Virus record (IMG/VR): IMGVR_UViG_3300021090_000018
Source of the DNA: an uncultured virus (IMG/VR IMGVR_UViG_3300021090_000018)
Taxonomy: Duplodnaviria; Heunggongvirae; Uroviricota; Caudoviricetes
Direction: 5' to 3' (one strand)
Length of the DNA: 64,000 nucleotides
In this document: piece by piece, positions 7,860 to 37,091 of the stretch
How positions within the stretch are numbered: position 1 is the stretch's first letter
How the letters are laid out: each line of letters opens with the position of its first letter
Position numbers and translations under genes: made by a program
Notes under the pieces: model-generated
Database searches by the model: none
What the model was told of the DNA's origin: nothing
The model's input: only the letters and a program-made list of their open reading frames with translations

Positions 7860-8081
7860 CTACTCCTTGTAAGCCGCTTTCAATCGTGCCACGATCCCGC
7901 GCAGGCAGGCACGATTCACCCGGTACGACGCGGTATCATCCTTGCCGGTCTCATCGTAGGCCGGTTGCACCGCACAGATAAACGGTTGCTCGTCGGCGTC
8001 ATGGTTTGGGAGGAGGCTGCAACTTGTCAACAGCATCCATCCCAGCAGACAACTCATCCACTTCAGTCCGTGCCAGCGCAT
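7860..8081 (-). CDS. o-spanin-like lipoprotein (Rz1-like)
   Basis: Lipobox LLTSC, two further Cys, overlaps upstream i-spanin-like gene in a different frame. Confidence 0.65.
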   Translation of the reverse strand: MRWHGLKWMSCLLGWMLLTSCSLLPNHDADEQPFICAVQPAYDETGKDDTASYRVNRACLRGIVARLKAAYKE

Positions 8082-8172
8082 CGCGTTTGACCTTTCTATT
8101 CTGCAGCACCTTGATAATCACCGGAATCAAGGCGAGGAGCGCCCCGATCAGGGTGAGAATGCCGATCGTCAT
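7999..8172 (-). CDS. i-spanin-like protein (Rz-like), 57 aa
   Basis: Manual translation MTIGILTLIGALLALIPVIIKVLQNRK...; N-terminal TM helix; TAATG coupling. Confidence 0.6.
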   Translation of the reverse strand: MTIGILTLIGALLALIPVIIKVLQNRKVKRDALARTEVDELSAGMDAVDKLQPPPKP

Positions 8173-8780
8173 TAGTGATGGCCCTTTGGCGCCGCGCTAC
8201 TCAACGATTGACTCTGGACTGCCGTAGCGCTCGTCCCATTCGCGGGCATCGTGGCGCCGAGGATTCCAAGCCCCATCGCTTGAAGGGCTCCCGCTGCAAT
8301 CTGCCCCCCTTGTCCTTGGCTCTGAATACTGTGCAGGTCTGAGACTTGGTGACAGTCAGAGAACTGCATGCCGTAATACTTGGGATCGGTTCGTCCCTCG
8401 CAGTTCTCCAGGAATGCAAACCCCGCGTTCGTGCCAAAGGGGCTCCGCTCCTCAGAGACTCGGGTGACGCCATACCGTCCACCACCGTAGTCGATGTAGC
8501 TCGCGCAGGCCGTGAGACTCAGCACCATACCGAGCAGCACCAGAAGTGCCAATTTCGGAATCACGTCATGCGCTGGGGCATTCGTCCCACTGTTCGACAC
8601 CTTGGCGTCCTTGGCGAGCAGGTTGCCGATCCCACCCAGCACCAATCCCCCGAAGAGAAAGTACTCGGGGATCGTATTCGGCATCCCCTGTTGCGCAATA
8701 ATATCCGCGGTCATCCCCGCCACGCCTGAGGCAATGGCGATCCAGCCCACAATCCCTGTTCTCCATGATGCTCCTAACAT
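8172..8780 (-). CDS. Holin-like membrane protein fused to an internal lipoprotein-type segment
   Basis: ATG 8780 after GGAGG; two TM segments ending LLAKDA, then KLALLVLLGMVLSLTAC lipobox. Confidence 0.55.
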   Translation of the reverse strand: MLGASWRTGIVGWIAIASGVAGMTADIIAQQGMPNTIPEYFLFGGLVLGGIGNLLAKDAKVSNSGTNAPAHDVIPKLALLVLLGMVLSLTACASYIDYGGGRYGVTRVSEERSPFGTNAGFAFLENCEGRTDPKYYGMQFSDCHQVSDLHSIQSQGQGGQIAAGALQAMGLGILGATMPANGTSATAVQSQSLSSAAPKGHH

Positions 8781-8794
8781 AGTCGCCTCCTTGA

Positions 8795-9061
8795 TTACGG
8801 TCTCAACTTCTCGATCACATCCCACTGTTGTTTTTGCTCTGTGGCAATCTCGGAGAACTGCCGCGTATCGGAGTTGTCGTGCAGATCCTGCCATTGCCGA
8901 ACGGTCTTCATATCCCCGCAAATCCCCGTCAGTTGAGTGGACATCGTGCTGACCTGCGCCACGACCGAATCTTGCCCATCCACCATGCGACGAATAGCCC
9001 ACCCAATGATCGAAGCGACGAGGACCGCGAGCGCGATGGCGATCCCTTCGGGAATGGTCAT
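8795..9061 (-). CDS. Single-TM coiled-coil membrane protein (holin/antiholin candidate)
   Basis: MTIPEGIAIALAVLVASIIGWAIRR + coiled coil, inside lysis cassette. Confidence 0.55.
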   Translation of the reverse strand: MTIPEGIAIALAVLVASIIGWAIRRMVDGQDSVVAQVSTMSTQLTGICGDMKTVRQWQDLHDNSDTRQFSEIATEQKQQWDVIEKLRP

Positions 9062-9201
9062 CGAGCCACCAACTTGCACCGATGGGCATAGCCCTGATCG
9101 TGGCCATAGGTGGCTCCACACGCCCTGCAACGATAGACCTTCTTGGGTAAGGCGCGTCCACAGGCCTCCATCTGCTGCCGCGTCACCATAACCAGTTTCA
9201 T
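9058..9201 (-). CDS. Small zinc-finger-like protein, 47 aa
   Basis: Manual translation ...YRCRACGATYGHDQGYAHRC...; ATGA overlaps at both ends. Confidence 0.45.
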   Translation of the reverse strand: MKLVMVTRQQMEACGRALPKKVYRCRACGATYGHDQGYAHRCKLVAR

Positions 9202-9638
9202 GATACCGACTCACTCATTGGTGCATCGATAATTTCTAATTCAAACGCCGCCCGTCCAGCCAGCAAATCCATCAGTTCCCCAAACCCTCTCTCGCTCGAT
9301 GCGAGGAACGGATGATCGAACGTCCCGCTGAACTCTTCCGCCACGAGGATACAGCCCTCGGTATCCTCGACCATATTCCCTTTATGAAACAGAATATGTG
9401 AGCGGCCCTGGACGCCGGTGACTTCAAACGTGTCGCCAAACTTCGGCGAATGCACCCGCCGACAGGTATAGCGTCCCGCAGGAATACACGAGATCGATGG
9501 CGCGTTGTCCTGCCAGGGCCGCTCCAGCGTCAAGGCAAAGGGGATCTGCCCCTGCCGGAGCACCCCGAACGTCCCACGGTTCGACTGCCCCACCCGTAGG
9601 AGGGTCACGAGGAGGAGTGGTGTGCGGATGTCGGTCAT
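9198..9638 (-). CDS. DUF5675-like putative endolysin
   Basis: TLERPW...SCIPAGRY...RSHILFHKGN..DTEGCILV motifs; first gene of lysis cassette. Confidence 0.75.
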   Translation of the reverse strand: MTDIRTPLLLVTLLRVGQSNRGTFGVLRQGQIPFALTLERPWQDNAPSISCIPAGRYTCRRVHSPKFGDTFEVTGVQGRSHILFHKGNMVEDTEGCILVAEEFSGTFDHPFLASSERGFGELMDLLAGRAAFELEIIDAPMSESVS

Positions 9639-9776: not shown

Positions 9777-10214
9777 TCAGCGAATCGTAAAATTTGTGAC
9801 AGGCAGCAGACAGGCCGCTTCTCCCGTCCGATCCTTCGTGAGCCCCGCTCCTGGTGTGGCACTCACGACCAGACTCGACATAATCCCGAGCGGCGTGTTG
9901 TAGCGACTGACCGCCGTGGCGGTGTAGGTATCGCTCACGCACCCGATCGTCGAGATGGTCGTGGATTGCACCACCCCTCCCGTCGGAGACGACGCGGGAA
10001 TGGTGACGGCCGGTAAGGCGGTCGCATCTCGACTGATCGTAATCATCGTGTCCCGTAAGTTCGTCACGCCGGTCGGCTCATCCCACTGGGCGCAGACGGT
10101 GCCAATGGCCGCCGCTGGGCACGTCGCCGCGTCCACTGGTCCCGCGAGACCGATCCACCCTACGACCAAGAACAACAACCCCATCGCACTCAGCCCCATC
10201 ACACGCTTCGTCAT
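9777..10214 (-). CDS. Exported Cys-containing beta-sandwich (FN3-like) protein
   Basis: Signal peptide MTKRVMGLSAMGLLFLVVGWIGLAGPVDA; GGAGG RBS; 4 Cys. Confidence 0.6.
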   Translation of the reverse strand: MTKRVMGLSAMGLLFLVVGWIGLAGPVDAATCPAAAIGTVCAQWDEPTGVTNLRDTMITISRDATALPAVTIPASSPTGGVVQSTTISTIGCVSDTYTATAVSRYNTPLGIMSSLVVSATPGAGLTKDRTGEAACLLPVTNFTIR

Positions 10215-10233
10215 CACAGACCTCCTGGTTAGA

Positions 10234-11142
10234 CTATCGACCGATCCCCAATAACATCGAAGCTGGTACCGCAGCCGGTCCTCCACCACCCGCTGGCGCG
10301 GACACATCGAGCGCATACTGTCCAATGGGCTCCTGCCAGGCATTCTTCCCTGGTCCATTCGCCCACGACGTAAAACCGTTCCCCGCATCGGTGCTGCGTG
10401 TGAAGCGGCGCCCATGACCGCTCCTGTCGTAGAGATCATCCTGATTCCCCGCCGGGATATTTGCCCAGACCGCCTGGCGATAGGCACTGTCTACTAAGGT
10501 TTTGCTGCGTACCTGCTTCATCAAAAATGGGATCGGCAACGCGCCTCGAAAGATCCAGATATTGTCCATTGATCCGTCGATGCCTTCGTTGTTGATATAC
10601 GGCACTGCGCCGAAATTGAGTGTGGAGCTGGCCGCATAGGTAAAAGCAGCCGGCATGTCACGCGAGATCACAATCGAGGTATCGGGCAAGTCTGGGTAGA
10701 AGAGTTGCTCGTAATCGTTCGTCGCCCGCTTCCGCCGCCGAAGCGCCATGTAGTATGGACGACCGATCACGGGCAGGGCGGAGGCGTGGTAGGTGTCCCC
10801 CCCTTGTGAGCCGATCGCAAAATGCAGATCAACGGCGGTAACTCCTGCAAAGGCCGTAATGTACTCATTCCCGCCGGTGAACCCAATGTCCTGTGCAAAG
10901 GCAAAGTACGTTTGATACTGCGTATTGGTGCGGACGTGATGATACACGCGCCAGACGATACTGAACTCCTCGCCTGGCCACGCCCGTGCATTCGCGGCGG
11001 GTCGGCGAATGCGATCCAGGGAGCCACTATCATTGGCAAAGCGAATGGAGGCCAGCGAGGGTTTGACGATCAGCGGCACCGTGACCAGGGCGGCCAGTCC
11101 ACCCAAGCCTGCTTTTAGGATGCTGCGTCTCGACCAGTCCAT
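10234..11142 (-). CDS. Tat-signal LamG/ConA-like accessory protein
   Basis: SRRSILK twin-arginine motif; GIDGSMDNIWIF and DLYDRSGHGR LamG-like motifs; C-terminal LLGIGR. Confidence 0.65.
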   Translation of the reverse strand: MDWSRRSILKAGLGGLAALVTVPLIVKPSLASIRFANDSGSLDRIRRPAANARAWPGEEFSIVWRVYHHVRTNTQYQTYFAFAQDIGFTGGNEYITAFAGVTAVDLHFAIGSQGGDTYHASALPVIGRPYYMALRRRKRATNDYEQLFYPDLPDTSIVISRDMPAAFTYAASSTLNFGAVPYINNEGIDGSMDNIWIFRGALPIPFLMKQVRSKTLVDSAYRQAVWANIPAGNQDDLYDRSGHGRRFTRSTDAGNGFTSWANGPGKNAWQEPIGQYALDVSAPAGGGGPAAVPASMLLGIGR

Positions 11143-11655
11143 TTAATTGACCTGTCGGTTATGTTCCCGTACGCTCAGGGTGGAGCCGGTCGCGGGAAAC
11201 GCTTGACTGCCGTTGTTCCAGATGATCGTCTTATAGAGCCCTGGCGGCACCGGCACGTCTCGACAAGTGAGGCGTTGCGCCGCCGTGGTTCCGAGGAGTT
11301 GAAAGCTGCAGGCAAAGCTATCCGCCACGGGACGATTCGTCGCATCACCATCCTCGTAGTTGGTGCCGTCCGCAGCTCTCACGAGGTAGAGATCCACGAG
11401 ACCATCGACGGTTGGCGCGCTCACAAAGTCCACGGTGAGAATCCAGTCACCGAGAAGGTTCGCCGCTGTCGCATCGGCCCCTTTGGCCGCGCTGATGGCC
11501 CGGCTGTTGGTGCCGAGCGCGTTCAGCTCGGTCGTCATAACGGCGGTGATCGTTTCGTAGGCGAGCTGCTTGATTGTGGCCGCGCTGGATACGCCTGGGA
11601 TGAGGGCGAGCGTGAGTGCGACGATGAGAACAAGTCGAGAGATCAAGGCGGGCAT
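11143..11655 (-). CDS. Exported beta-rich accessory protein
   Basis: Signal peptide MPALISRLVLIVALTLALIPGVSSA; GAGGAGG RBS. Confidence 0.65.
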   Translation of the reverse strand: MPALISRLVLIVALTLALIPGVSSAATIKQLAYETITAVMTTELNALGTNSRAISAAKGADATAANLLGDWILTVDFVSAPTVDGLVDLYLVRAADGTNYEDGDATNRPVADSFACSFQLLGTTAAQRLTCRDVPVPPGLYKTIIWNNGSQAFPATGSTLSVREHNRQVN

Positions 11656-11656
11656 G

Positions 11657-13720
11657 TTACCTCCTCAAATTTAAACTAAGTTGGAATCGACCCGGTGAGG
11701 GCGCTGGCGGATCCGGTGCCGCCGCACCAGTCGTTCCCGGGACTGGGATAGGATTTGTGGATACAATAAACTCATCAATCCACATGTTGGCGTTTGCCGC
11801 TCCACCGACGTTCAAATTCGTCATGTAGGGCGTGAACGTCGCCCGATTGTAGGTATTGATCCCGCCATCGGCCTCGAACTGATAAATCCCCTCCATGTCC
11901 ATGACCTGTGTATAGGATGTGGCGCCATCACGCGCCAGCCAGACCTGCCACGTCCCGTTGCTAGACGTAAAGTTATTGATCGTCACTTTGCCGTAGAACG
12001 TCACCCATTCATTAGTATGCTGCCAGTTAAAGCAGCCGGTGCCATTCCCACTGCCATCCACGAGATTATTAAAGTCGCACCAATACCCATCGGTCTTACT
12101 CGCCACATTTGAGCCTTGTTGAATCCACGGACCTGAACCGCTCTGGACGCCCCCATTGGTCATGAAATTCTGATAATTGCCGCAGCGGGAATACCAGATT
12201 TGAGCCCCAATACCCCCGCTATATTGATAGGTGGTCTGTGTCAGTTCCACGCTTGAACAGGTGATGGAGCCATTGTGGAGAATCAAGGTCTTCCAGCCGG
12301 TGTCAGTGCCAGACTGCCACTGAGCAAGATTCGTTACCATGGAGGGGGTAATCCGTACACGATATTGGTAGTACCAGGTTTGTCCAGCCCCAAACCCTGA
12401 CCCATCGGTCTTCAGGTTGCTGTACCAATGGCCGCTAATATCTGACGTGGCACGCCCTGCGGGAAGATTGAATCGCAACGCCCCGGTACCACTGGTCTTG
12501 ATTGTGGTATCCATATCGGTCCCATCGAATCCCCCGTCACCGGCGCGAGCTTTATTCCCAATGGTATAGTCTCCAATGGTGTCGAACCCTTCTGCGAACG
12601 TGACGCCTGCTGCGGTAGACCGATAATTCCAGTCGGCATCTCCCGCCGCAACCGTCCGCAACGCAGACAGGTTGGCGCTCATGTCGTTGTACACAACGAA
12701 CGCATGTTCGGTCTGCGAATAGGCAAACCGCCCATAGGTGCCGTTAGCCATGGGGGACGGTCCCCCACTAAACGTCACCGTGGTCCAGGTATTCGCCGCG
12801 TCGTTGTACCGATAAATAGAGTTCCCGCCAGGCCAGCAGACCAACTGATAAAAGTCGTAGTCGTAGGCCAGCCCGGGCCACGCGGCAGTGGTACAAGTGT
12901 TCGTCGCCCCATTGGTCGGCGCAGGCACGCTCGTCGGCGTCGTGATGTTCCAGATATGATGCTCGCCTCCACCGAGCACATGGAACTTACGCGCCTTCCG
13001 GTCGATGTACCCATATAGGTCTTGCCCTCGGTAGTGTCCGCCCTGGTCGTTTCTCGACGTGAGGGTGTTCGTCGCAAAAACGTACTGAAAGAGGGCAATG
13101 CGGGTGTCGATCCAAACCGAGGCGCTCACCGAATCATAGGCGATGGTGGTGCCTTCGATATCATTGGCCGTAAACCCACTGGTCAACGAGGCAAACGTCC
13201 CCATGTTCTGCCAGGTGTTGGCCGTCGGATTGTAGGCCCAAATCCCAATGGATGAGTTCGCAGTGGCACAGGCCAGTGACCCACTCACCACAATCACCCG
13301 ATCGGCGTTTTCGTCGTAGGTCAGACCCCCGTAGGTATGGCGAGAATTCGGTGCCGTTGGGTTTGTCAATCCTTCCACGCACGACCCCGCGACTGGCACG
13401 CTCGGATCGGTCAACCGTGTGCGGCTGCCATTATCTAGGTCAATCGCATAGAGTTCGTTGCCCGCATAATCCGCATGCCCTCCACCCCAGACATAGAGCC
13501 GGTTTCGCAAGGAATCCCACGCGCCACTGTTCCAGGCCGCCGTGACGTTGGGGCAGTTATCGGAAAAGCCATACCCGCTCCCCCCAAACCCGTTGGCTGG
13601 GCAGACGGACTGCAATGAGGTGTTGGCAATGGCATGCCACCCCACGGTACTCGGGACGGAGGTGGCCCACGACGCAACGGGTGAAAGAAGGATCAGTAGT
13701 GCGAGAATACGTACAATCAT
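11657..13720 (-). CDS. Exported Kelch-like beta-propeller plus jelly-roll (lyase/lectin-like) protein; probable receptor-binding or depolymerase protein
   Basis: Signal peptide MIVRILALLILLSPVASWA; VWGGGH..Y.GNE, SRHTYGGL and GTYGRF propeller motifs; WIDEFIVST; Pro-rich C-terminus. Confidence 0.65.
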   Translation of the reverse strand: MIVRILALLILLSPVASWATSVPSTVGWHAIANTSLQSVCPANGFGGSGYGFSDNCPNVTAAWNSGAWDSLRNRLYVWGGGHADYAGNELYAIDLDNGSRTRLTDPSVPVAGSCVEGLTNPTAPNSRHTYGGLTYDENADRVIVVSGSLACATANSSIGIWAYNPTANTWQNMGTFASLTSGFTANDIEGTTIAYDSVSASVWIDTRIALFQYVFATNTLTSRNDQGGHYRGQDLYGYIDRKARKFHVLGGGEHHIWNITTPTSVPAPTNGATNTCTTAAWPGLAYDYDFYQLVCWPGGNSIYRYNDAANTWTTVTFSGGPSPMANGTYGRFAYSQTEHAFVVYNDMSANLSALRTVAAGDADWNYRSTAAGVTFAEGFDTIGDYTIGNKARAGDGGFDGTDMDTTIKTSGTGALRFNLPAGRATSDISGHWYSNLKTDGSGFGAGQTWYYQYRVRITPSMVTNLAQWQSGTDTGWKTLILHNGSITCSSVELTQTTYQYSGGIGAQIWYSRCGNYQNFMTNGGVQSGSGPWIQQGSNVASKTDGYWCDFNNLVDGSGNGTGCFNWQHTNEWVTFYGKVTINNFTSSNGTWQVWLARDGATSYTQVMDMEGIYQFEADGGINTYNRATFTPYMTNLNVGGAANANMWIDEFIVSTNPIPVPGTTGAAAPDPPAPSPGRFQLSLNLRR

Positions 13721-14460
13721 GTTCCAACTCCGAGGAGGTTAAACGTTCCGATGGGCGGATCTGCTGGGGGAGGGGAACCGGAAGCCTGAAAAATATTGAT
13801 CGCAGCGAGATGCCGCTCAGCCGCTGTATTCGTCCAGCTCATCGCCACACTCGCCGCCCCGGCTTCATAGGACGTGCCAATCGCGTATACGTCCAGCACG
13901 GTGTACCCCACTTGGGTCTGTCCCGCCCCTACGGGGTCGGCATCTCCCGCGCCGTCTTGGATGAGGTCGATCACGAGGTCTCCCGTGGCCCCATCTGCTA
14001 CCGTCACTGAGGCATTAGCCGTTCCGCTCCCACTGGTGACGGCTGTTCCAAGTGGCGTCGTTTGGTGGCATCCAGTGACAGCGAAGACGGCCCCTGCGAA
14101 CCGTGCAGTCCCCCCCGCAATGGAAATCACGACATTCGCGGTCGTGACCGTGGGGTTAATCAGATACCAGAACTCCGTCCGCATGCTTGGAGCGCCCGTC
14201 ACGTAGGTGTGATCGGACTTCTTAACGAAATTCTCACTCCCGTTGAAGGTGATGCCAGAGACCGTGCGTCCGTCTAGATCAAAGGCCACCGGCACCACCA
14301 GGCAGCGATCCGATCCAGCCGACACGGTGACCGATTGCGTCTTTGACGCGGCGAGGGTGGCTTGCAGCACTTCCGCTGTGGAGACGACGACGACCGCTCC
14401 CCAACTCAGGCCGGGGAGCAGCAGCAGTGCGAGCACGATACAGACGACGAATCGTTTCAC
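13717..14460 (-). CDS. Exported beta-rich accessory/fibre protein
   Basis: Signal peptide MKRFVVCIVLALLLLPGLSWG; C-terminal PPPADPP...LLGVGT. Confidence 0.65.
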   Translation of the reverse strand: MKRFVVCIVLALLLLPGLSWGAVVVVSTAEVLQATLAASKTQSVTVSAGSDRCLVVPVAFDLDGRTVSGITFNGSENFVKKSDHTYVTGAPSMRTEFWYLINPTVTTANVVISIAGGTARFAGAVFAVTGCHQTTPLGTAVTSGSGTANASVTVADGATGDLVIDLIQDGAGDADPVGAGQTQVGYTVLDVYAIGTSYEAGAASVAMSWTNTAAERHLAAINIFQASGSPPPADPPIGTFNLLGVGT

Positions 14461-14463
14461 GAC

Positions 14464-14745
14464 TTATTCCTTGGGCTTCGGCTCTTTCATCTTCGCCAGT
14501 GCCTTTTTGGTGTCCTGATGCGCCTGACGTTCCTCTTGGAGTTGGCGGCCCAACGAGGCCACTTGCTCACGCTTCTGCATGAGTTCCTGATCCATGAGCT
14601 GCACCGTAATCGTGCGGTCCTTGAGCGCCGTCCTGGCTTCCTGCAATTGCGCGGCCACGTCAGGCTTGGCGTCCTGGGCCTGCACGGGCACCGTCATCAT
14701 CAACATGCACAGAATGCCGACTACGAAGAATGTTAACTTCATCAC
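14464..14745 (-). CDS. Exported coiled-coil protein
   Basis: Signal peptide ...MLMMTVPVQA then coiled coil. Confidence 0.6.
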   Translation of the reverse strand: MMKLTFFVVGILCMLMMTVPVQAQDAKPDVAAQLQEARTALKDRTITVQLMDQELMQKREQVASLGRQLQEERQAHQDTKKALAKMKEPKPKE

Positions 14746-14806
14746 GCGCTCCTTTGGTTGTGTCGCTGTCGTCCTACGTCGCTGAATCTAGTTAGTCATG
14801 CTAATC

Positions 14807-17800
14807 TCACGACTCCACTGTAAAGTACGAAACACTGATCGAACAATTCCCGCCCGCCGGATCTTCGATCGTGTACCGCAGGTCTTCCCCATCGGCCCCA
14901 ATCCCGAGCAGGCCTGAGCCGTCGCCGATCGTGAAGCCTCCACCCGCCGGTACTCCGTCGAACTCATGGAGAATACCCGCGACTCCGGTATGCGCCGACG
15001 CGGGGAGAGTCGCGGCACCGAAGCCGACTTTGATGTTTGTGGGAGCGGTGGTGCTCCCGTCGCACGAGGCGGTCAATCGCGTCACGGCGATCTTCGAGCC
15101 CCCGGCCACCGAGACGAGAGCTTGATCCGTCAAGGCGCCATCGACGTCCTGGATCTGCGCAGAAATCGTGATGCTGTTGGGGTGTCCGCCGATCATGAAG
15201 GGGATACCGGCACGGTTGAAGTACCAGTCCGTTCGATCCGCTGCCGCGACACCGGTCGGGTTCGAGCCGTGCGCCACAGCTTTCCCGCCCATCTTCACCG
15301 GCGCTCCGGCATCCGCCGCATCGTGCGCCACAGTCCCGTTCGCTGCGACAATCCCAGTCGAATCGTTGGCGATACTCACCCGTAGGGCTCCGGTCCCTGT
15401 GGCCCCGTTGCCCATCAAGGGCGTCACCCCATTGATCTGGGCGACATTGAATGGTTCATTATCTGGGAAGGAGGCGACCGCCACTTGTCCGGTTGAATCG
15501 CTCGCCAGGGTGACACGCTGGACCCCAGTCCCCGAGATTCCGTTCCCCATGGTGACGGCGACCCCGTTGATCTGCGCCACGTTAAATGGCTCGTTATCCG
15601 GGAACGTCCCGACATTCACCGTGAAGGCGGTATTGTCGGAGGCGATCGTCACCCGCTGCGATCCGGTGCCCGTGATGCCATTGCCCATCAGGGGGGTGAC
15701 GCCGTTGATCTGCGCCACGTTAAACGGTTCGTTATCGGGGAAGGTGCCGATCGTGACGCTTGGAAGAGTGAGTACGTCGACTTGCATTTCCGTACCAGCC
15801 ACCGCACCAGCGACCGTGGTCAGTGCAGCCAGGATCGCGTCTGAATTGAAATCCTGCGTCCAAAGCGCCCCTTCGGCGGTGCTGCGCGGGTTGGTCCAGT
15901 CGCCTTCGATTTCGGTCAGGGTACTTAACGCATCATCCCGCTCCATCGTGAAGGTGGCGCCAGTCGGATCGGCTGGGGCTGCCGCATTGACGACATACTC
16001 GGTTCCCCCGCCTCCACCGGTCACATGCAGGGCCCCTTGAGAGTTCACGCGCAAACCCACCACATCTCCGTCGGGATCCGCTAAGGTGCCTAACGTGTCA
16101 TTGCGAATGGCGAGGGCAAAGGTTCCCGTGGCCGTCGCGGAAGCTACGTCTCCGATGTTGTATTGCGTCCCGCCTCCGCCCCCGGTGACATGCAACGCAC
16201 CAGTGCTGTTGACACGCAGATGCACATAATCGCCTTCAATGGGCGTCAGGGCCCCCAGCGCATCGTCGCGCACCGCGAGCATCGCCACGCCGGTATCGGT
16301 CGCGCCTGCGACACTATCGACCGCCTTTCCAAGATTGGTCGCGCCGGTGCCAGCGATCACGGCGGCCACGCTGGTATTGAGTCCACCTGACGTCGTGTAG
16401 GCACAATGCACGGGATTGGTGCCGTTATCGCAATAGAGGACCGCTGCCACTTCTGTCACGGCTGTCGCATCAGCGGGAATGCTGCCGTCTTCCGTTACCG
16501 TCGTCGTGCCCGCGACCGCGGCGATCGAATCAATCGTCACATGCAGGGAGCCGACCGAATCCACCCGGAGATTCGTGTAGGCACCATCAGCCGGTGTCAA
16601 GGTGGACAGGGCGTCGTCTCGAATGGCGAGCGACGGGACGCCTCGATCAGAGGCACCCGCCGCCACCTGGATTGCGTTACCGTTATCGTCGCGCACCCAG
16701 AGTGAGCCGATCGAGGTGCCCCTGAGACTGATCCAGTCACCCTCGATAGGGGTGACGGTCGCCAGGGCATCGTCCCGTTCCATCATCGTGGCGGTCCCGA
16801 CGATGGTCGCGGGAGTCGCGGCATCTTCGGAGTATTCGGTGCCACCCCCACCACCGGTGACGACGAGGGCACCGTTCGCATCGAGTACACAATTCGCATA
16901 GTCGCCATCGACACCGAGACCCGTCGTTGCGACATCATGACGCACACAGAGCATGCCGACGCCGACATCCCCAGAGGTATGCGGGGAATCTTCGGCTTTC
17001 CCCAGGTTCGTGGCCCCAGTCCCAGGAATAACCGCCGCCACCGAACTGACCGACGTGACGGTGCTGACCGTGGTGATGGTGCCGGAATCCACGATCACAT
17101 TGAGGGCCCCTGCGCCATCAGTGACGGTGATGGTCCCCGAGTCCACAATGACGTTGAGCGCCCCAGCCCCATCGGTGACGGTGACCGGGTTGGTGATCGT
17201 GGTGACGGCAGTAATGGTGCCGGAATCGACGATGGTATTGAGGGCGCCCGCGCCGTCGGTGATCGTGACCGGATTGGTGATGGTCGTGACGGCGGTCAGA
17301 GTGCCAGAATCGACGATAACGTTCAGGGCGCCCGCGCCATCGCTGATGAGGGCATCGACATAGAGCCGCCCCGCCGCACTGATCCCGCAATTGGCATAAT
17401 CACCATCAACCCCAAGGCCGGTCGTGGCGATATCGTGACGGACACACAGCGAAGGAATGCCAGCATCGGTGCTCGTATGGGCTGAGTCTTCCGCAAAGAC
17501 GACGTTATCGATGAGTTGCAGAGCCGTGAGGGCTGCCGCCGAGTTCGCGTCGATCACCCAGAGGGCGCCATTCGCGTTGCCGCGTAAGTTCGTCCAATCG
17601 CCCACCGCTTCCGTGCCGGGGCTACCAAGTGTGTCGGTGCGTTCGACCAACGTCGAGGTGCCGACTGGATTCGTCGGTGCGGGATCGTTCGTATTGTACT
17701 CGGTCCCCCCGCCACCACCCGTGACGCGCAAGGCCCCATTGCTATCAGTCTGGAAGGGGCAGTAATCACCGTCGGCTCCGCAGAGGGCGCCGCCCGCGTC

Positions 17801-18310
17801 GCTGCGCACATTCAAGACAAACGTGCCAGGTGAGGTGCTCGTATGTCCGGAGTCTTCGTCGTATTCTGTTCCAGCTCCCCCACCGGCTCCACCGCCTCCA
17901 CCTTTGGTCGCCACGGCGGTTGTCGCTCGTGCAAAGACACTGACGGTTCCCAGCGACCAGGCCGAGATGCGAGCCCTGAAAGTGCCAAGACCGGCGACGT
18001 TACATTGATAGATCCCACTCGCTGACGCGCTTGTAACCAGGGCCGCGCTGGTGCTACCCGAGGAGGCGCAGGTGACCGCCGTCCATCCAGACCCCGACAC
18101 ACTCCCCTCAAAGGTGACCGTGGCCGTATCGGCGATGGTGATGTCCAGGCCGACGGCCGTAAAGCCATCGACGGAGATCGCTCGTCCATCGTCGGTCGCT
18201 TCCACCGCGTTCTGCAGGAGATATTCCCGATGGTCTTCGAGGGCCCATCCAGGAGCGACGAGGCTCAGGCTCAGGCCCAGCACCAGGAGTGCACGGTTCA
18301 GGATCTTCAT
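14807..18310 (-). CDS. Large repetitive fibre-like protein with signal peptide
   Basis: ATG 18310 after AAGGA; MKILNRALLVLGLSLSLVAPGWA; several internal repeat families. Confidence 0.7.
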   Translation of the reverse strand: MKILNRALLVLGLSLSLVAPGWALEDHREYLLQNAVEATDDGRAISVDGFTAVGLDITIADTATVTFEGSVSGSGWTAVTCASSGSTSAALVTSASASGIYQCNVAGLGTFRARISAWSLGTVSVFARATTAVATKGGGGGAGGGAGTEYDEDSGHTSTSPGTFVLNVRSDAGGALCGADGDYCPFQTDSNGALRVTGGGGGTEYNTNDPAPTNPVGTSTLVERTDTLGSPGTEAVGDWTNLRGNANGALWVIDANSAAALTALQLIDNVVFAEDSAHTSTDAGIPSLCVRHDIATTGLGVDGDYANCGISAAGRLYVDALISDGAGALNVIVDSGTLTAVTTITNPVTITDGAGALNTIVDSGTITAVTTITNPVTVTDGAGALNVIVDSGTITVTDGAGALNVIVDSGTITTVSTVTSVSSVAAVIPGTGATNLGKAEDSPHTSGDVGVGMLCVRHDVATTGLGVDGDYANCVLDANGALVVTGGGGGTEYSEDAATPATIVGTATMMERDDALATVTPIEGDWISLRGTSIGSLWVRDDNGNAIQVAAGASDRGVPSLAIRDDALSTLTPADGAYTNLRVDSVGSLHVTIDSIAAVAGTTTVTEDGSIPADATAVTEVAAVLYCDNGTNPVHCAYTTSGGLNTSVAAVIAGTGATNLGKAVDSVAGATDTGVAMLAVRDDALGALTPIEGDYVHLRVNSTGALHVTGGGGGTQYNIGDVASATATGTFALAIRNDTLGTLADPDGDVVGLRVNSQGALHVTGGGGGTEYVVNAAAPADPTGATFTMERDDALSTLTEIEGDWTNPRSTAEGALWTQDFNSDAILAALTTVAGAVAGTEMQVDVLTLPSVTIGTFPDNEPFNVAQINGVTPLMGNGITGTGSQRVTIASDNTAFTVNVGTFPDNEPFNVAQINGVAVTMGNGISGTGVQRVTLASDSTGQVAVASFPDNEPFNVAQINGVTPLMGNGATGTGALRVSIANDSTGIVAANGTVAHDAADAGAPVKMGGKAVAHGSNPTGVAAADRTDWYFNRAGIPFMIGGHPNSITISAQIQDVDGALTDQALVSVAGGSKIAVTRLTASCDGSTTAPTNIKVGFGAATLPASAHTGVAGILHEFDGVPAGGGFTIGDGSGLLGIGADGEDLRYTIEDPAGGNCSISVSYFTVES

Positions 18311-18380
18311 GGTCGTTCCTTTCGATGGCATGACATCACGGATAGAATCACAGTGCGTATTGGTGAATCAGCACAGAGCA

Positions 18381-20003
18381 TTAGAAAAACTCCGCAAGAG
18401 ATCCAGCACGAAGTTTCACCATGACATTCAGAAATAGTGTTGGCTGCATATTGTTCATCGCCGCATTGCCGCCGGTGCTCTGTGAATTCGCATTGCTGTT
18501 ATTCGCGCCCGCCGACCACGAGATAATGCCGCTGGCGCTAGATGAGCTTGGGACATCGCTGTTGCCGAGCAGGAGATGTGCGTGTGCCAATTGCTCTGTT
18601 GCGCTTTCAGCGTGCGCTTCTTCCCCAATAGCCTCGCCAAGCACTCTCGAGGTGTAGGTATGCGTGATCGTCCAAACGGGCGAAGATTTCGCCGTATAGT
18701 CAATCGCGGTGCCGTTCTGTGCATTCGCCAAAGTTGAAGCGAGTTGAACCTTTGTCGCACTGGACCGAATCACATAGTAGGTCGTCGAGGTTGTCAGGCC
18801 CGTGATGGTGCCCGATGCCAGCGTAAACACGACCGGCATCCCGGTGATCCATTTGGTGTTGTTCGAAACTACAGTCAGGTCATTCGCGGTAATATCGACG
18901 TCCGCATCGACCCCCGACGCGACGACGGTTCCGGTGCCATAGCCAGCGAGGGCACGTCCCAACGTCTTGGGGAGCGTCAGCGCCTTATTGGCAGCAAAGT
19001 CGGCTGCAGCGCTTCCCCCGCGACCGCCAGCAACCGGCGCCCATTGATCCGTGACATTCGTCCAAATGAGTGTGTAGAGCGCAGATGTGTCGGCATTGGC
19101 TCGACCCGTTGCGCCGCTGGTGGCACTCCCAATGGACTTGTCGTCCATCAGGACCCAGGAGGTGTCGGCCACGGTCTTGAGCGACAACTTGACATCGCCG
19201 GTGGAAAATCCCACCGCGTCCACATACTGCTTGCTGGCAATGCCGAGCGCGTCGGTAGGATCAGCCCCCACCGTACCGGCGTTGATCGTGGGGGTGCCAG
19301 ACAGGGAGTAGGTCCCGGTGGCGATACCAGACAAGACCGGTGACGAGATCGCCGGAGCCGTGATTGTGGGCGTACCGGCCAAGGTGTACGTCCCGGTCGC
19401 CGATCCCGAGAAGACGGGCGACGAGATGGCTGGAGCCGTGATCGTGGGCGTACCCCCCAACGTATAGGTCCCTGTCACCGTACCGGAGAGTATCGGAGAG
19501 GCGACGGTCTTATTCGACAGCGATTCAGCCCCGGCCAGCGTGGCAAAATCCCCGTCAGATAGGGCGGTATTGAACTGCGCGACAGTCCCCGTCAGCGTGT
19601 TGTTGGCCAGATTGAACGTCTTGGTGGTGAAGGTTTCGGATCCGGCCAAGGTGGCCAGTGTCCCCGTCAGTGGGAGGGTGACGTTCGTGGTATTGGTGAC
19701 GGTCAGCGTCGTGGCGAAGGCGCCCGAAATGGCGAAGTTACCCGCCAGGCTGAGTGTGCCGGTCGTGACGGTGAGAGCGTTTGCTGAGCCGTTGACAATG
19801 ACGGGCTTGTTGGCATTGCCAGACAGGGACGGCAGCTTACTAAATCCCGTCGAGATCAGATCCAGCTCGGCTCTCATAGAGGCGGATGTCGCGGGAGATC
19901 CAGACGCGGGAAAACTTCCATGCGTGTAATAATCCACCCCGTAGACGCGTGACGCCGCCCCGAGAATCAAGATCGCAACCAGTGCTCCGTGCCAGCGCTT
20001 CAT
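18381..20003 (-). CDS. Tail fibre protein carrying an N-terminal signal peptide
   Basis: YYTHGSFP...SMRAELDLISTGFSKLP attachment-like N-domain; ASKQYVDA..FSTGDVK and NNMQPTLFLNVMVKL collar motifs; three 26-aa repeats. Confidence 0.75.
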   Translation of the reverse strand: MKRWHGALVAILILGAASRVYGVDYYTHGSFPASGSPATSASMRAELDLISTGFSKLPSLSGNANKPVIVNGSANALTVTTGTLSLAGNFAISGAFATTLTVTNTTNVTLPLTGTLATLAGSETFTTKTFNLANNTLTGTVAQFNTALSDGDFATLAGAESLSNKTVASPILSGTVTGTYTLGGTPTITAPAISSPVFSGSATGTYTLAGTPTITAPAISSPVLSGIATGTYSLSGTPTINAGTVGADPTDALGIASKQYVDAVGFSTGDVKLSLKTVADTSWVLMDDKSIGSATSGATGRANADTSALYTLIWTNVTDQWAPVAGGRGGSAAADFAANKALTLPKTLGRALAGYGTGTVVASGVDADVDITANDLTVVSNNTKWITGMPVVFTLASGTITGLTTSTTYYVIRSSATKVQLASTLANAQNGTAIDYTAKSSPVWTITHTYTSRVLGEAIGEEAHAESATEQLAHAHLLLGNSDVPSSSSASGIISWSAGANNSNANSQSTGGNAAMNNMQPTLFLNVMVKLRAGSLAEFF

Positions 20004-22105
20004 CGCAACAGCCTCCGTGGGATGAAGTGGGTGATCAGGGAATCCAGGTCGTAGGGATAGAGATAGTCTTCCGACGACCGGAAGGTGACCTCGATGTTTT
20101 CGCCGTCGCCGGTCAGGTCGATCTCACTGGGCGAGAGGAGATTGCCGTCCCAGACAAACGCATCCCAACTCACCTCGTCCCAATTGGCACTGCCGGAGAA
20201 ATTCCCGACGTAACTCCGTTGAGGCGGTTGCGCATACTCACTGCTGCCATAACCCAGGCGATAGGCGACCTGGAAGGCCGCGTAGAAGTTGCTGCTCATC
20301 TCGACCGAGCCCCCACGATAGCTCTTGATCAGCCGAGGCGATTGCATCGTGTTCCAGGCCAACGTCAGAATCGCGTCGAGGTTGTCCCCGTCGAACGAGG
20401 ACCCCCGATCGAGTTCATAGACGAAGCCCCCGGTGGATGCTCCGGCATAGGTGCGTTCCTCTCCAGAGGGCGTTTCAGCGTTCCAGACACAGAAGAATGG
20501 AATCGGGAACGTCATCGGCATCGAGCCCACGACTTTGCCGTTCACAATCGTCAGGTAGAGCGCGTTGCCGTTACTGAAGTAGAGCCGGTACTGACTCTTC
20601 GTCTTGTGGGTGCAGGAGCAGAGGAGTAGTCCTCGGTGTTCGGTGATGAAGTTCTGAATGTTGAACGTCAGAGTGCCGGGCGCAAACCCGCTGAGTTCCG
20701 CTGCCGCTCGCACGCTCTGGACTCCGCTATCGTCCAAGCTGTACGCATCGGCCATATTCTGTTGGCTGTAGTGGACGCCCCCGGTTTCGTTGTTGAAGTC
20801 GACCGGCTTCCAGGGCGTCGTCCCTCCCGCTGCCGTGCCATAGACAATCCGCTTGGAGTTCCGGCCATCGACCAGCAACGTCGCGTTCCCTTGCGCACCA
20901 GGGAGCGAGAGATAGCCCGTGATTTCATCCCCAATGGCAATTTCCGCTGCTCCCGCCGTGGCATCGAAGACATACGGACGGCCAGGCCCAGAGACCATCG
21001 ACGAACTCCCAATGGCGAACCACAGGTGATCGCTATGGACCTTGACGTGAATGGGAATATCCGACGTGGCCTTGGTCTCGATCGGCACGAACACCGTCCC
21101 GTCGAACTCAAACCCACGATTCGCGTTGTCACAGCCGTAGATCCGCTTGGTCTGAAGTTGTCCCCCAAAGTTCTTGATGTCGAATTCAAACCGTCCACCA
21201 GGGAGCATGGGAATCGCGGTCTGGACCCCACTCACTTGAATCGAGATGGCCCCGATCGTTGCGGCACCGGCGGTATAGTTTCCTGGGGCCGGCGCGTCGA
21301 TGATGAACCGGCCGTAGGCATCGCCCGCCGCGAAGCTCCCGCCTTCGTGCACCGCCCGACGAATCAGCGCGGTATTCCCGCCTTGGGTCAGCGTGTCGCC
21401 GTCCACTGGCACGAGCGATCCATGATTGCCGCCTGTAAACCGCACCTCCAGGAACATCGTGACCGCCGTCCACCCAGAGGCAGAGGCTTCATGCAACACA
21501 ACCGCGGTGGCTCCGGCGTTATCCCGAAAGGCGAAGAGCTTGTGCGTACCTGAGACATTGAGCGAGGTGACCCCACGCACCGGCCCCGAACCAGGCACCG
21601 CCGCAATTAAGGCGCGATAGACATCAGCCGCGAGGTTCAGATACTGGGCGTTCAGCAGCTGGGAGAGGACGACCGTGCGCATCACCGCCGTCCCGATCGT
21701 CGTCGCGCCCACCTTCACCACTTCCACATCGGTAAAGGTGCCGACGAGAATCGTGAGCACGAGATAGTCGGCCCCTAAGGCGATGATCTTCCCTGTCGCG
21801 CCAGAGGAATTCCCCGTGAGCGTTTGCCCGAGCGTCGGGATGTTCGTGAAGCTCGCAATCTGCACCAGGCCATAGACCGCATCAGATGGACGGGCTCGCC
21901 CATCCAGGCGTTCATGTCCACCGATCCTGCGATACCCACCACCAGGCGTGGCCTTGGCTTCATAGTTCCGGGCATACCGCGCAATGCCTCGCCCTGGCTT
22001 GAGTTGCAGCGTCGGCGTCATCTCGTCCAAGCCGCCGATGAGGACGACTTGATCCGTCTTCACGTCGGGCATCTGCTCAATCGTATTGTCGAGTTGACGA
22101 CTCAT
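20000..22105 (-). CDS. Tail nozzle/stabilization protein
   Basis: ~700 aa beta-rich, GGLD...GGYRRIGG N-terminus, follows adaptor gene. Confidence 0.65.
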   Translation of the reverse strand: MSRQLDNTIEQMPDVKTDQVVLIGGLDEMTPTLQLKPGRGIARYARNYEAKATPGGGYRRIGGHERLDGRARPSDAVYGLVQIASFTNIPTLGQTLTGNSSGATGKIIALGADYLVLTILVGTFTDVEVVKVGATTIGTAVMRTVVLSQLLNAQYLNLAADVYRALIAAVPGSGPVRGVTSLNVSGTHKLFAFRDNAGATAVVLHEASASGWTAVTMFLEVRFTGGNHGSLVPVDGDTLTQGGNTALIRRAVHEGGSFAAGDAYGRFIIDAPAPGNYTAGAATIGAISIQVSGVQTAIPMLPGGRFEFDIKNFGGQLQTKRIYGCDNANRGFEFDGTVFVPIETKATSDIPIHVKVHSDHLWFAIGSSSMVSGPGRPYVFDATAGAAEIAIGDEITGYLSLPGAQGNATLLVDGRNSKRIVYGTAAGGTTPWKPVDFNNETGGVHYSQQNMADAYSLDDSGVQSVRAAAELSGFAPGTLTFNIQNFITEHRGLLLCSCTHKTKSQYRLYFSNGNALYLTIVNGKVVGSMPMTFPIPFFCVWNAETPSGEERTYAGASTGGFVYELDRGSSFDGDNLDAILTLAWNTMQSPRLIKSYRGGSVEMSSNFYAAFQVAYRLGYGSSEYAQPPQRSYVGNFSGSANWDEVSWDAFVWDGNLLSPSEIDLTGDGENIEVTFRSSEDYLYPYDLDSLITHFIPRRLLR

Positions 22106-22788
22106 CGAAACGCTCCCACCAAGGCCGCCGAGGGCGTTTGATCGTTCACGAGATTGCGATATTCCTCTTTCCACGCCTTCTGCGCCCTGGCATAGACTTC
22201 CCGTGCAGCATAAAAACCGCCGTAGTCCAGCATGGCTTTGTGCACAATAATGATGTCGTCATGGCCGAGCGGCATGGCCGGCACGTTTGCATCAGCGGTG
22301 AGGAGTACGGCGTTTCTGTAGTAGTCCATGGAGGCTTCAAGTCCGGAGATCGGCGAGGGCCCAACGATCAGCGCATCATCCGGTCCAGTCGTCACTTCGA
22401 TGGGACGTGAGGAGACGGTGCGATTGGCCCCGAACAACCAGAGATTGCGGAAGCTCTCGTAGCTGCGGTAGTCGAGGTGTTGCTCGGAGACGAGTCCGGG
22501 AATGGTGAAGAAGGTGCGGCCGTTCTCGGGGATCCAGTCCCGAAAGGTGCCGGCCGCGATGGCACAGGCCGTCGGCAGATAACTGGACGTGCCGGCGATC
22601 AAGGGCCATGTGGCCGTCAACCGCATGAACTTCCAATCGTCGCGCTTGGCCTGGATCGAGATCCAGGCGGACGCATACCAGTTGACCATCCGCTTGAGTT
22701 GGCCGGTCTGCCCGACCACGGTCGTCAAACTGTTCGCGTTCACCCCGCACTCGTCGCAAAACCTGATGACCCCATCCAAGAACGTCAC
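22102..22788 (-). CDS. Head-tail adaptor protein
   Basis: GTG after GGAGG; TFLDGV...AWISIQ...W.FM and P.P motifs; synteny. Confidence 0.6.
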   Translation of the reverse strand: MTFLDGVIRFCDECGVNANSLTTVVGQTGQLKRMVNWYASAWISIQAKRDDWKFMRLTATWPLIAGTSSYLPTACAIAAGTFRDWIPENGRTFFTIPGLVSEQHLDYRSYESFRNLWLFGANRTVSSRPIEVTTGPDDALIVGPSPISGLEASMDYYRNAVLLTADANVPAMPLGHDDIIIVHKAMLDYGGFYAAREVYARAQKAWKEEYRNLVNDQTPSAALVGAFR

Positions 22789-22810
22789 GAACAGCCCTCC
22801 CAGCGCGTGG

Positions 22811-27405: not shown

Positions 27406-28083
27406 TTAATTCGCCGCAAACTGGACCGAGATCGAGCCAAAGGCCAATCCACCCGCACCAGGAGCAGACACGTTGACGCTCAGCCCGTTGGAGGTGCCCG
27501 CGAGGACCGTGGGCATCTTCGATTCAAACAATCCGTAGTCACGGCAATACGCATCCAACCCTGGAACGTCGGCTGCGCCTGCACCCAATTCTCCCACTTG
27601 AAAACTCCATTGATCGAGGGTGGGACCGATGGTGCCGAGCGTCCCGGTTCGTCGCACGATGCCGGTCCAGTTCCCATCCGCCGGATCAAACTTCGAGACG
27701 CTATCCGCGCCGGTCCCTTCTTGCGTCGAGACGGTGCCCCCGCTGGAGGCGGTCGATCGACGATTCACCGTCACCGTGACGCCAGCGGCGGCGGTCGCAT
27801 TCGTCACCCCAACACACACTCGTGACACGCGAAAGCCTCGTGCCGCCTCCGCTTCGAGCGACAGATTAAAGAGCGCGGTCGTGACCAGCGCCGAGCTGGA
27901 AGCGTTGTAGGTGGCCACCGTGGACTTCCCAGCATTGGTCGCCAGATTCCCGTTGAGATCAACCTTGGCACACTGCGATCCTGTGGTGGGATCGCAGATG
28001 TTCGCGGCATGTCCCGTGAGAGGCAGCAGCACCAGTACCAGTGCGAGGCTACCCCACTGAGTAATAGACTTTAAATTTCCCAT
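27406..28083 (-). CDS. Exported beta-rich accessory protein
   Basis: AGGAG RBS; signal peptide ...SLALVLVLLPLTGHA; 4 Cys. Confidence 0.65.
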   Translation of the reverse strand: MGNLKSITQWGSLALVLVLLPLTGHAANICDPTTGSQCAKVDLNGNLATNAGKSTVATYNASSSALVTTALFNLSLEAEAARGFRVSRVCVGVTNATAAAGVTVTVNRRSTASSGGTVSTQEGTGADSVSKFDPADGNWTGIVRRTGTLGTIGPTLDQWSFQVGELGAGAADVPGLDAYCRDYGLFESKMPTVLAGTSNGLSVNVSAPGAGGLAFGSISVQFAAN

Positions 28084-28657
28084 GCGTCAGACTCCTTTGT
28101 ACAGCACAGTGAAGCGTAAAGGTTCCCGCGGCGGGAATCGCGCTACAGACCAGGGCGTCCAGTTCGTTCTCGTCGGCCTGCCGACCAGTGGCCGCTTCGC
28201 CCGCTTGCACCACCATGATCTTGCTCGTTCCGGAAACGGTCGCGTCTGTGACCGTCGCCTTCGCCGCCATCGTCGCCGATGAGCCGAAATCCAGTTCATA
28301 CGTCGTCCACGAGGCGCCGGCTCCCCCTCCTGCAATCGTACACACCGTCTTCCCGCCGCTCTCCGTACAGGACACACCGGCCCCGGTGAAGTTCACCGTC
28401 GTCCGCTGGGTCTGTGGTGTCCCTTCGTCTTCGATCGTCGCATAGCCACCGCCACCGCCGGAGAGGGTGAGGGTTCCGGTGACACCCGACTTGGTACAGG
28501 CGATGCTCGAGCCGACACAGTTGAGCGTCTTCACCGCCCCCTGTGAGGCTCCTTCATCCTGCAGGTCGATCGACGGACTCGGCTGGAAGGAATCCGCTCT
28601 AGTTCCGACCGGCGAAACTAACGCTAGCGCCAGTGGTAGAAGCGATAACCAGCACAT
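28049..28657 (-). CDS. Exported fibre-like protein with (Q/E)DEG repeats
   Basis: Signal peptide MCWLSLLPLALALVSPVGTRA (alternative GTG start 28681); LQDEG..LNCVG and IEDEG..VNFTGAGV repeats. Confidence 0.65.
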   Translation of the reverse strand: MCWLSLLPLALALVSPVGTRADSFQPSPSIDLQDEGASQGAVKTLNCVGSSIACTKSGVTGTLTLSGGGGGYATIEDEGTPQTQRTTVNFTGAGVSCTESGGKTVCTIAGGGAGASWTTYELDFGSSATMAAKATVTDATVSGTSKIMVVQAGEAATGRQADENELDALVCSAIPAAGTFTLHCAVQRSLTHGKFKVYYSVG

Positions 28658-37086: not shown

Positions 37087-37091
37087 GTGAC

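Follow-up and report, generated by a model that had tools for sequence, protein, structure and literature searches.

By the textbook account, the assembly of tailed phages is wholly cytoplasmic. Filamentous phages depart from this scheme, in that the coat proteins of Ff phages (g3p and g8p) carry Sec/YidC-dependent signal peptides and assembly takes place outside the cytoplasm. Tailed phages do encode proteins with export signals in their late operons, such as lambda lom and bor, spanins and signal-arrest-release (SAR) endolysins, which occur as single genes with envelope functions. Here we analyze a 64,000-nucleotide stretch of DNA from an uncultured, short-tailed Caudoviricetes virus of groundwater (IMG/VR record IMGVR_UViG_3300021090_000018; "the window" denotes this stretch at its full length), in which 11 late genes, including that of the tail fibre g540, begin with predicted export leaders. 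The window resembles the tailed phages just mentioned in having its own lipobox o-spanin-like open reading frame (ORF), and differs from them with 11 leader genes that include its only fibre. The Ff phages differ in that they are extruded without lysis and build no capsid in the cytoplasm, whereas here a DNA-filled icosahedral particle would have to meet the exported parts.

Like the docking fibres of podoviruses (the T7 gp17 type with PF03906, and those of SU10-like phages), g540 directly follows the nozzle gene, is coupled to it and has a conserved N-domain, and its variable C-terminal parts are common to homologues that bear PF03906 or Collar domains. It differs from the T7 gp17 type by its 22-residue export leader and by the lack of a PF03906 or Collar match. 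A partial precedent for leader-bearing proteins reaching virions is the cultured, short-tailed Cellulophaga phage phi18:3 (NC_021794, Pachyviridae). Its consecutive late genes gp085, gp086 and gp087 carry canonical leaders, and the record lists the products as virion structural, structural and tail protein "based on experimental MS/MS proteomics analysis" (MS/MS, tandem mass spectrometry). This phage differs from the window in its unrelated sequences, its Bacteroidota host and the absence of Cys pairing (0, 1 and 3 Cys). A further comparison is WceF of Pantoea stewartii, which combines a trimeric tailspike fold and a P22-type particle-binding head domain with a Tat (twin-arginine translocation) signal (PMC7949094). 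WceF is a glycan-modifying enzyme of a bacterial exopolysaccharide cluster and belongs to no virion, whereas the fibre of the window sits in a phage late operon beside the nozzle (PMC7949094). The earlier note on this DNA did not recognize the arrangement as a described pathway, and a search of open-access papers and bioRxiv likewise gave us no account of tail-fibre export in tailed phages.

All late genes of the window lie on the minus strand. The 11 leader genes (starts at 20003, 18310, 14745, 14460, 13720, 11655, 11142, 10214, 29810, 28657 and 28083) comprise an eight-gene block at 9777-20003 and three genes of the head module:

18381..20003, minus strand: g540, candidate docking tail fibre; leader amino acids (aa) 1-22 (nucleotides (nt) 19938-20003); mature start VDYYTHGSFP
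14807..18310, minus strand: g1167, large repeat protein related to g403; strict leader call, aa 1-23 (nt 18242-18310)
14464..14745, minus strand: g93, small coiled-coil protein; strict leader call, aa 1-23 (nt 14677-14745)
13717..14460, minus strand: g247, protein of a phage-typical family; strict leader call, aa 1-21 (nt 14398-14460), with one Cys in the leader
11657..13720, minus strand: g687, Kelch beta-propeller with a C-terminal beta-sandwich; leader aa 1-19 (nt 13664-13720)
11143..11655, minus strand: g170; strict leader call, aa 1-25 (nt 11581-11655); Shine-Dalgarno (SD) match AGGAGG
10234..11142, minus strand: g302, pentraxin/LamG-like beta-sandwich; Tat-like leader aa 1-31 (nt 11050-11142)
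9777..10214, minus strand: g145, last gene of the block; strict leader call, aa 1-29 (nt 10128-10214); SD match AGGAGG
28599..29810, minus strand: g403, head-module repeat protein; strict leader call, aa 1-21 (nt 29748-29810)
28049..28681, minus strand: g202; predicted cleavage between TRA and DSF; start at ATG 28657 (no SD) or GTG 28681
27406..28083, minus strand: g225; strict leader call, aa 1-26 (nt 28006-28083); SD match

All 11 genes are open frames, and at each N-terminus a basic n-region leads into a hydrophobic core free of charges, with small residues in positions -3 and -1. Leaders were called with a predictor based on our own rules rather than SignalP, namely a net positive n-region, a hydropathy of 2.5 or more over an 8-residue core, and conformity with the -3/-1 rule. 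Strict calls were returned for 10 of the 11 named genes and for 0 of the 24 other late proteins, and composition-preserving shuffles passed in 121 of 7200 cases (1.7%). The earlier note's claim that eight block genes and three head-module genes begin with signal peptides is therefore borne out. Three of the 24 other proteins gave weak calls (o74, the DUF5675 protein and the lipobox o-spanin). By this predictor, leaders are absent from the structural proteins capsid, portal, adaptor, nozzle and scaffold, from the terminase and from the large putative ejection proteins, as the earlier note had proposed for capsid, portal, adaptor, nozzle and ejection proteins. Ten leaders are of the predicted Sec/signal-peptidase-I type. 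The eleventh, that of g302, is Tat-like because it contains an SRRSILK motif and a c-region lysine (SRRSILK, then AGLGGLAALVTVPLIV, then Lys ahead of SLA), and it is not a plain Sec leader, which qualifies the description in the earlier note. Two other leader-bearing g302 homologues have no twin-arginine motif, and one of them, P0244, is Sec-type by eye.

The start codons bear on a mundane explanation, in which the leaders are mis-called starts, or structural or membrane-piercing N-termini of virion proteins that stay in the cytoplasm. Two observations would fit it: from ATG 28657, g202 has no SD and no positive charge and scores only weakly (from GTG 28681 it scores strictly), and a GTG coincides with the point at which g540 is predicted to be cleaved. 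Against it, an SD match of at least 4 bases precedes 9 of the 11 starts, and downstream alternative starts have no SD match in 9 of the 11 genes, the exceptions being codon 42 of g202 and three internal codons of g93. The ATG of g540 overlaps the nozzle stop (ATGA), and that of g302 abuts the g170 stop (TAA-ATG). The GTG at the g540 boundary has no SD match and occurs in the window only, and in L002, L018 and L017, three of the related loci that we fetched (L numbers), there is no start within 16-22 codons of the fibre N-domain. A dual-start model, in which a leaderless g540 is also made from GTG codon 23, was rejected in general because this start is unconserved and lacks an SD match. The leader rule also passes none of the 21 late proteins of Xanthomonas phage DES1, a cultured relative at the level of the major capsid protein (MCP), which was dropped as a model for the leader trait on this ground. 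Together with the linkage and parity statistics below, these results make an artefact very improbable in our view.

The only particle-docking tail fibre candidate of the window is g540. It matches a PHROG tail protein (E 2.7e-9), and its residues 266-358 share 52.7% identity in tblastn with annotated tail-collar proteins. Pfam returned 0 families at E <= 0.01, neither PF03906 nor PF07484 (Collar), both of which are carried by g540 homologues; the collar motifs reported in the earlier note are thus supported by the tblastn match and not by a Pfam family. Homologues number 955 at E <= 1e-3, and among the best 120 of these, 42 contain the N-domain (xDYYxHGSFP...MRAELDLI), 36 with a leader and 6 without. 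In the full set of fetched loci, a profile of this domain picked out 28 domain starts, 10 with and 18 without a leader. The leader-fibre loci are the window, L002, L015, L016/L017 (near-identical), L018, L026, L031, L035 and L094. Fibre homologues that begin at the YYTHG motif without a leader, a possibility that the earlier note had raised, therefore exist in 18 of the 28 cases. In all 18, Met lies 2-4 residues ahead of the domain (MSNDYY...), at the position of the predicted cleavage point of the leader forms (AxA before the cut, NDYY after it).

The same N-domain ties the fibre to the nozzle. In 22 of the 28 loci the N-domain begins where an ORF of at least 550 aa ends, and these ORFs align as one nozzle family. 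The 4-base overlap of nozzle and g540 is the same in the leaderless relative L001. Pairwise BLASTP between g540 and the L001 fibre is not significant (E = 1.5), and their positional homology is shown by the profile instead. No cultured phage with this fibre type is known: we found no tblastn match to the g540 N-domain in 50,697 phage records. We also found no solved structure matching the fibre-family profile and, with the nozzle as query, no relative in viral contigs. Leaders are not confined to this type of N-terminus: five fibres with other N-termini carry them (P0025, P0031, P0043, P0046 and P0067), and some of these N-terminal types have, by eye, leaderless counterparts with the same N-terminal sequence. 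In P0067 the leader is accompanied by a PF03906 match of 24.5 bits, below the cut-off of 25.2. We infer that g540 joins the particle because it has the sole nozzle-linked domain, its gene is coupled to that of the nozzle and it has no leaderless start. The nozzle is its presumed docking partner.

Across the related loci, leaders on downstream genes accompany a leader on the fibre. Same-strand ORFs within 10 kb downstream of the fibre carry a leader in 23 of 50 cases at leader-fibre loci and in 1 of 73 at leaderless-fibre loci, which is the clade-wide co-occurrence that the earlier note had suggested surveying. Counted by locus, the linkage is 6/6 versus 1/9 (p = 0.0014), with 6/9 leader ORFs in the window (automatic caller), 3/10 in L094, 4/13 in L002, 7/12 in L015, 1/2 in L026 and 2/4 in L035. 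A nozzle tree of 23 rows places all 8 leader rows, along with 3 leaderless ones, in a single well-supported clade of 11; the starred branches force at least 2 changes of leader state, and parsimony gives 4. Three families, those of the fibre, g302 and g403, exist in both leader states, and L035/L045 and L031/L019 are matched leader/leaderless sister phages. Of the seven members of the g302 family, 3 have a leader and 4 do not, and the N-termini of the leaderless forms (MSIRFAND/MAVNIFNG) coincide with the cleavage site predicted for g302 (SLA before SIRFAND). The leaderless g302 homologues have a lone cysteine and the leader forms none. As no evidence tied the leader trait to any one host cell plan, such a link was rejected. 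One relative was binned in a Nitrospiraceae metagenome-assembled genome (MAG), where the 50-kb contig that carries it consists of phage sequence over its full length and has no bacterial flank; a close capsid match was found in 1 of 301 Nitrospiraceae genomes, that MAG itself, with 2 more weak matches. There are no tRNA genes in the window.

A bias toward even numbers of cysteines is a hallmark of exported, disulfide-bonded proteins. The mature leader proteins of the window contain 6 (g403), 6 (g202), 4 (g225), 12 (g1167), 2 (g247), 10 (g687), 2 (g170) and 4 (g145) Cys, and the remaining three, g540, g93 and g302, contain none. The multiple Cys described in the earlier note are thus present in 8 of the 11, at 2-12 each, and absent from the other three. 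All 8 Cys-containing leader proteins have even counts, with a spacing that suggests neighbouring pairs, as compared with 7 even and 8 odd among the 15 Cys-containing leaderless late proteins. In seven related loci, leader ORFs are even in 16 cases, odd in 8 and without Cys in 1, versus 21 even and 34 odd for the non-leader ORFs. Sorted by hand, the 8 odd leader ORFs are 4 fibres, 2 lipobox proteins and 2 others, which leaves the non-fibre, non-lipobox leader ORFs at 14 even and 2 odd. The g403 family gives the same picture within one set of homologues: among the top 150 of its 2334 hits, the 46 strict-leader members are 38 even, 6 odd and 2 without Cys, and the 104 others are 40 even, 43 odd and 21 without (Fisher p = 2e-5).

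Parity also speaks to the fate of the leaders, which might be uncleaved signal anchors that tether the proteins on the periplasmic face of the inner membrane as an envelope structure or staging platform, perhaps linked to lysis. Cleavage is indeed predicted only, the block abuts the lysis cassette, and g93 shows a resemblance to i-spanins and periplasmic collar proteins at very weak E-values, far under the cut-offs (Rz-like spanin, E 0.0027; periplasmic FlbB, E 0.0015). The counts of g247 and g202, in contrast, are even only after a leader cysteine is excluded, every leader has small -3/-1 residues after a short h-region, and the leaderless fibre and g302 homologues begin where cleavage is predicted, in line with a targeting peptide that can be removed. 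We consider permanent anchoring improbable.

Taken together, the leaders, the cysteine parity, the families that occur in two states and the linkage make it highly probable, as far as sequence can tell, that the leader proteins are exported; they would also be cleaved and, where they contain Cys, oxidized. The disulfide folding and export put forward in the earlier note are well supported by the even parity, by the cleavage-site starts of leaderless fibre and g302 homologues, by the linkage and by the lack of a usable internal start. The reading that we favour is that g540, the seven other block genes and the three head-module genes are made with cleavable export signals and that the fibre docks after export, to which we assign a probability of about 0.55. 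In this scheme the leader proteins would exit the cytoplasm and lose their leaders, upon which the fibre and g302 would have the N-terminus of their leaderless homologues, and the Sec-routed Cys-containing proteins would form disulfides in the periplasm. The fibre would not meet the cytoplasm-built, DNA-filled particle until the holin opens the inner membrane or the cell has lysed, and would then dock through its conserved N-domain. The lectin-like accessory proteins (Kelch with beta-sandwich, pentraxin/LamG-like and repeat) might be carried by the fibre or the particle, or might have envelope glycans as their target. Docking after lysis and the roles of the ten non-fibre proteins are put forward here as proposals. 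In its broadest form the idea becomes that of a two-compartment virion, whose head, tail hub and DNA come together in the cytoplasm and whose entire host-recognition set (docking fibre, lectin-like adaptors and repeat fibres) is exported by Sec/Tat, loses its leaders, is disulfide-bonded in the periplasm and is attached at holin opening, as a switchable, module-wide trait gained or lost at least twice in one nozzle clade and hidden because the cultured models are leaderless; for this we would put the odds a little under even.

Several points weigh against the favoured reading. The cleavage sites of the predictor and those chosen by eye disagree in 5 genes, and the Tat-like leader of g302 matched no Tat profile (none at E <= 0.01 with Pfam TAT_signal and none at E <= 1 with NCBIfam TIGR01409). 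The parity signal is absent from the leader-bearing fibres, of which 14 have no Cys, 13 an even and 9 an odd number; the L015, L094 and L018 fibres have one Cys each and the L016 fibre has 7. For the linkage, the ORF-level p of 2e-9 overstates independence, as the counts come from 6 leader and 13 leaderless loci, and L004 and L005 among the latter are near-identical. MS/MS detection of phi18:3 gp085-087 could reflect co-purifying material. The secreted Kelch family to which g687 belongs includes members on bacterial contigs of 1.4-11 Mb and the leaderless sister L045 manages with a fibre alone, so the seven extra genes of the block need not be virion parts. Finally, to our knowledge, efficient docking after the mixing of compartments is unproven for any tailed phage.

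Disulfide folding cannot be the cause of fibre export, since g540 lacks Cys altogether and parity is absent among leader-bearing fibres, and we rejected a need for disulfides as the motive on these grounds. We can only speculate that the fibre is exported to co-localize with partners that do depend on disulfides. The proposal of the earlier note that these proteins are appendages of the virion, added to the particles at lysis or later, may hold for all of them; alternatively, the non-fibre leader genes may have a phage-encoded surface or periplasmic function.

Carried further, the alternative would remove the fibre from the virion as well. The exported proteins would then be a periplasmic or secreted accessory set, acting late in infection or in the lysogen in receptor masking or cutting, exopolysaccharide remodelling or superinfection exclusion; the fibre-like protein would act like WceF, and the particles would be fibreless or carry another adhesin. 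The Kelch protein g687, with its secreted family, is one argument for such a role. In a model of pLDDT 85.9 (AlphaFold2, AF2) it consists of a Kelch propeller (residues 27-355) and a beta-sandwich (373-655), with weak Kelch Pfam matches and Foldseek Kelch domains at TMt ~0.6. It was not called a GH43-like enzyme, the Foldseek likeness being one of architecture only (TM ~0.25). Strict leaders are found in 60 of the 120 family members listed, typically followed by a conserved IPxTxGW...SVCP. The fold of g302 would also be lectin-like, with pentraxins as best matches (TMt ~0.6) to a low-confidence model (pLDDT 56.9). The phage is temperate, with an integrase present. In L045 the nozzle is followed by a fibre of 855 aa, an ORF of 61 aa and the DUF5675 gene, from which it follows that the window carries seven extra leader genes at this position, none of which L045 has. 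The bacterial kin of g687 and this minimal layout argue for accessory roles of the non-fibre genes. WceF itself places a P22-type particle-binding head domain on a Tat-exported glycan enzyme (PMC7949094).

One point against a wholly non-virion set is g540, which alone has the nozzle-linked N-domain and lacks a leaderless start, so that the phage would be fibreless; the overlap of its ATG with the nozzle stop, shared with leaderless L001, points the same way. The block is also tightly packed. Its GC content is uniform (0.57-0.63), and promoter-like (4 versus 4.9 expected) and terminator-like sites (5 versus 9.1 expected) are not in excess, with none inside its intergenic gaps. In these respects it is unlike classic morons, although the absence of the seven extra genes from L045 would fit a dispensable insertion. 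The g247 protein has mostly viral neighbours, the three nearest ESM-Atlas clusters shown being 91-95% viral (score 0.96), and the g302 and g403 families contain many leaderless forms. On balance, we judge a non-virion role for the whole set, fibre included, to be rather unlikely, and we retain docking of the fibre after export as the preferred reading.

BLASTP links g1167 to g403, to a 509-aa protein of L015 and to a 1047-aa protein of L094, all of them leader-bearing, and g403 and g1167 have repeats in common with each other and with these L015 and L094 proteins. PHROGs named none of 15 g403-family members, one weak fibritin match aside, and a complex prediction for mature g403 with g90, its small leaderless neighbour, returned "no answer" (score 0.00), which weighs neither way. 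The g202 protein shows homology to a portion of a leader protein of 388 aa encoded by L035. No family match was obtained for g170 in Pfam, PHROGs or NCBIfam; NCBIfam gave sub-threshold noise only on all 11 leader proteins, and no usable match came from PDB sequence searches with g687, g302, g1167, the nozzle and the fibre profile. By eye, a similar short, strand-like motif closes several post-nozzle proteins of both leader states (FNLLGVGT, SMLLGIGR, FKLYGVAK, TYLIGSV; window 13717-14460 and 10234-11142, L001 35821-36765 and 37731-38195), which could be a common docking strand or chance.

The late region in which these genes lie is arranged as follows, in order of transcription:

32938-34239, minus strand: terminase, first in late transcription order
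30042-32513, minus strand: portal; SU10_portal match of 21.7 bits, cut-off 30 (Pfam)
26662-30045, minus strand: cassette in the portal/scaffold interval with g90, g403, g202, g225, a Cys-rich 89-aa ORF, a 55-aa helix-turn-helix (HTH) ORF and a 75-aa ORF
29773..30045, minus strand: g90, small and leaderless; its start overlaps the portal stop and its 3' end extends 38 nt into g403
25705-26586, minus strand: scaffold
24615-25685, minus strand: MCP (PHROGs: major head protein)
22811-24569, minus strand: three small ORFs
22102-22863, minus strand: adaptor, leaderless; Pfam SU10_adaptor 35.6 bits, cut-off 27
20000..22174, minus strand: nozzle, leaderless, probable start 22105; assigned by position and by synteny with the L001 "phage stabilization protein"
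7860..9638, minus strand: probable lysis cassette directly past the leader block, with DUF5675 (9198-9638), a transmembrane (TM)/coiled-coil ORF (8795-9214) and a lipobox o-spanin-like ORF (7860-8081)
below 7860, minus strand: large leaderless putative ejection proteins, 3' of the lysis cassette

The window is best explained as the nearly whole genome of a temperate adaptor-nozzle podophage whose host, uncultured, is presumably diderm. Among deposited genomes the metagenomic MW202426.1 is nearest (capsid identity 45.5%); the nearest cultured relatives reach an MCP identity of only 30-31%, and Pseudomonas phages rank lower (24.7%). The cassette between portal and scaffold also holds the 89-aa ORF with its six Cys (CxxC pairs) and the 55-aa ORF, which is HTH_17/MerR-like; L001 and L002 have one or two small ORFs only at this position. 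The cassette appears to move between positions, because in L035, L094 and L015 a g90-like leaderless gene running into a large leader-bearing gene is found downstream of the fibre. In the lysis cassette, the DUF5675 protein was identified by Pfam (E 1e-25), and DUF5675 leads the putative cassette both in the window and in L045, at 66% identity. It may be a muralytic enzyme, as the Pfam scan recognized no endolysin family among the window proteins scanned. Small ORFs directly 3' of the fibre in L045 (12583-12768) and L035 (6589-6810) contain a CCxxHDxxY motif reminiscent of phospholipase A2; a counterpart was not noticed in the window.

Beyond the late genes, the window encodes an integrase, TnpB and a 1936-aa polyvalent (LPD) protein. 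The IS605-type TnpB (37092-38276, plus strand) adjoins the integrase (minus strand) within 35867-38276, and a full-length mirror ORF lies opposite TnpB (37080-38264). An ORF at 1-3225 (minus strand) runs past the window start, and the 1936-aa LPD ORF (58174-64000, minus strand) is open at the window end; given a circular or permuted genome, the two could form one polyvalent protein of ~3,570 aa. The domains of such a giant protein would be InPase, LPD1, LPD5 and LPD38, and the relative G001:C156 has a single 3879-aa ORF. Two leader proteins lie outside the late operon, one of 127 aa (57108-57491, plus strand; cleavage between AQA and QIIC) and one of 225 aa (55028-55705, plus strand; cleavage between ARA and EGP). 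In G001:C156, a 113-aa leader ORF (36602-36943) that resembles the 127-aa protein by eye adjoins the giant ORF. P0001 is located on a contig of 65,651 bp.

These findings support the notion that the exported-fibre pattern is a real feature, and probably a variant of tail-fibre biogenesis. If this is true, such phages would have a late extracytoplasmic assembly step that needs host Sec/Tat, signal peptidase and Dsb, and these would be new host factors and points of defence. Cytoplasmic expression of such fibres for host-range engineering or diagnostics would misfold them, and receptor-binding proteins would be mislabelled wherever an annotation pipeline takes a signal peptide to mean "not structural". 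The leader together with the paired-cysteine signature would serve as a sequence-only marker of the trait, and the L035/L045 and L031/L019 sister pairs, along with the cultured phi18:3, make the question directly testable.

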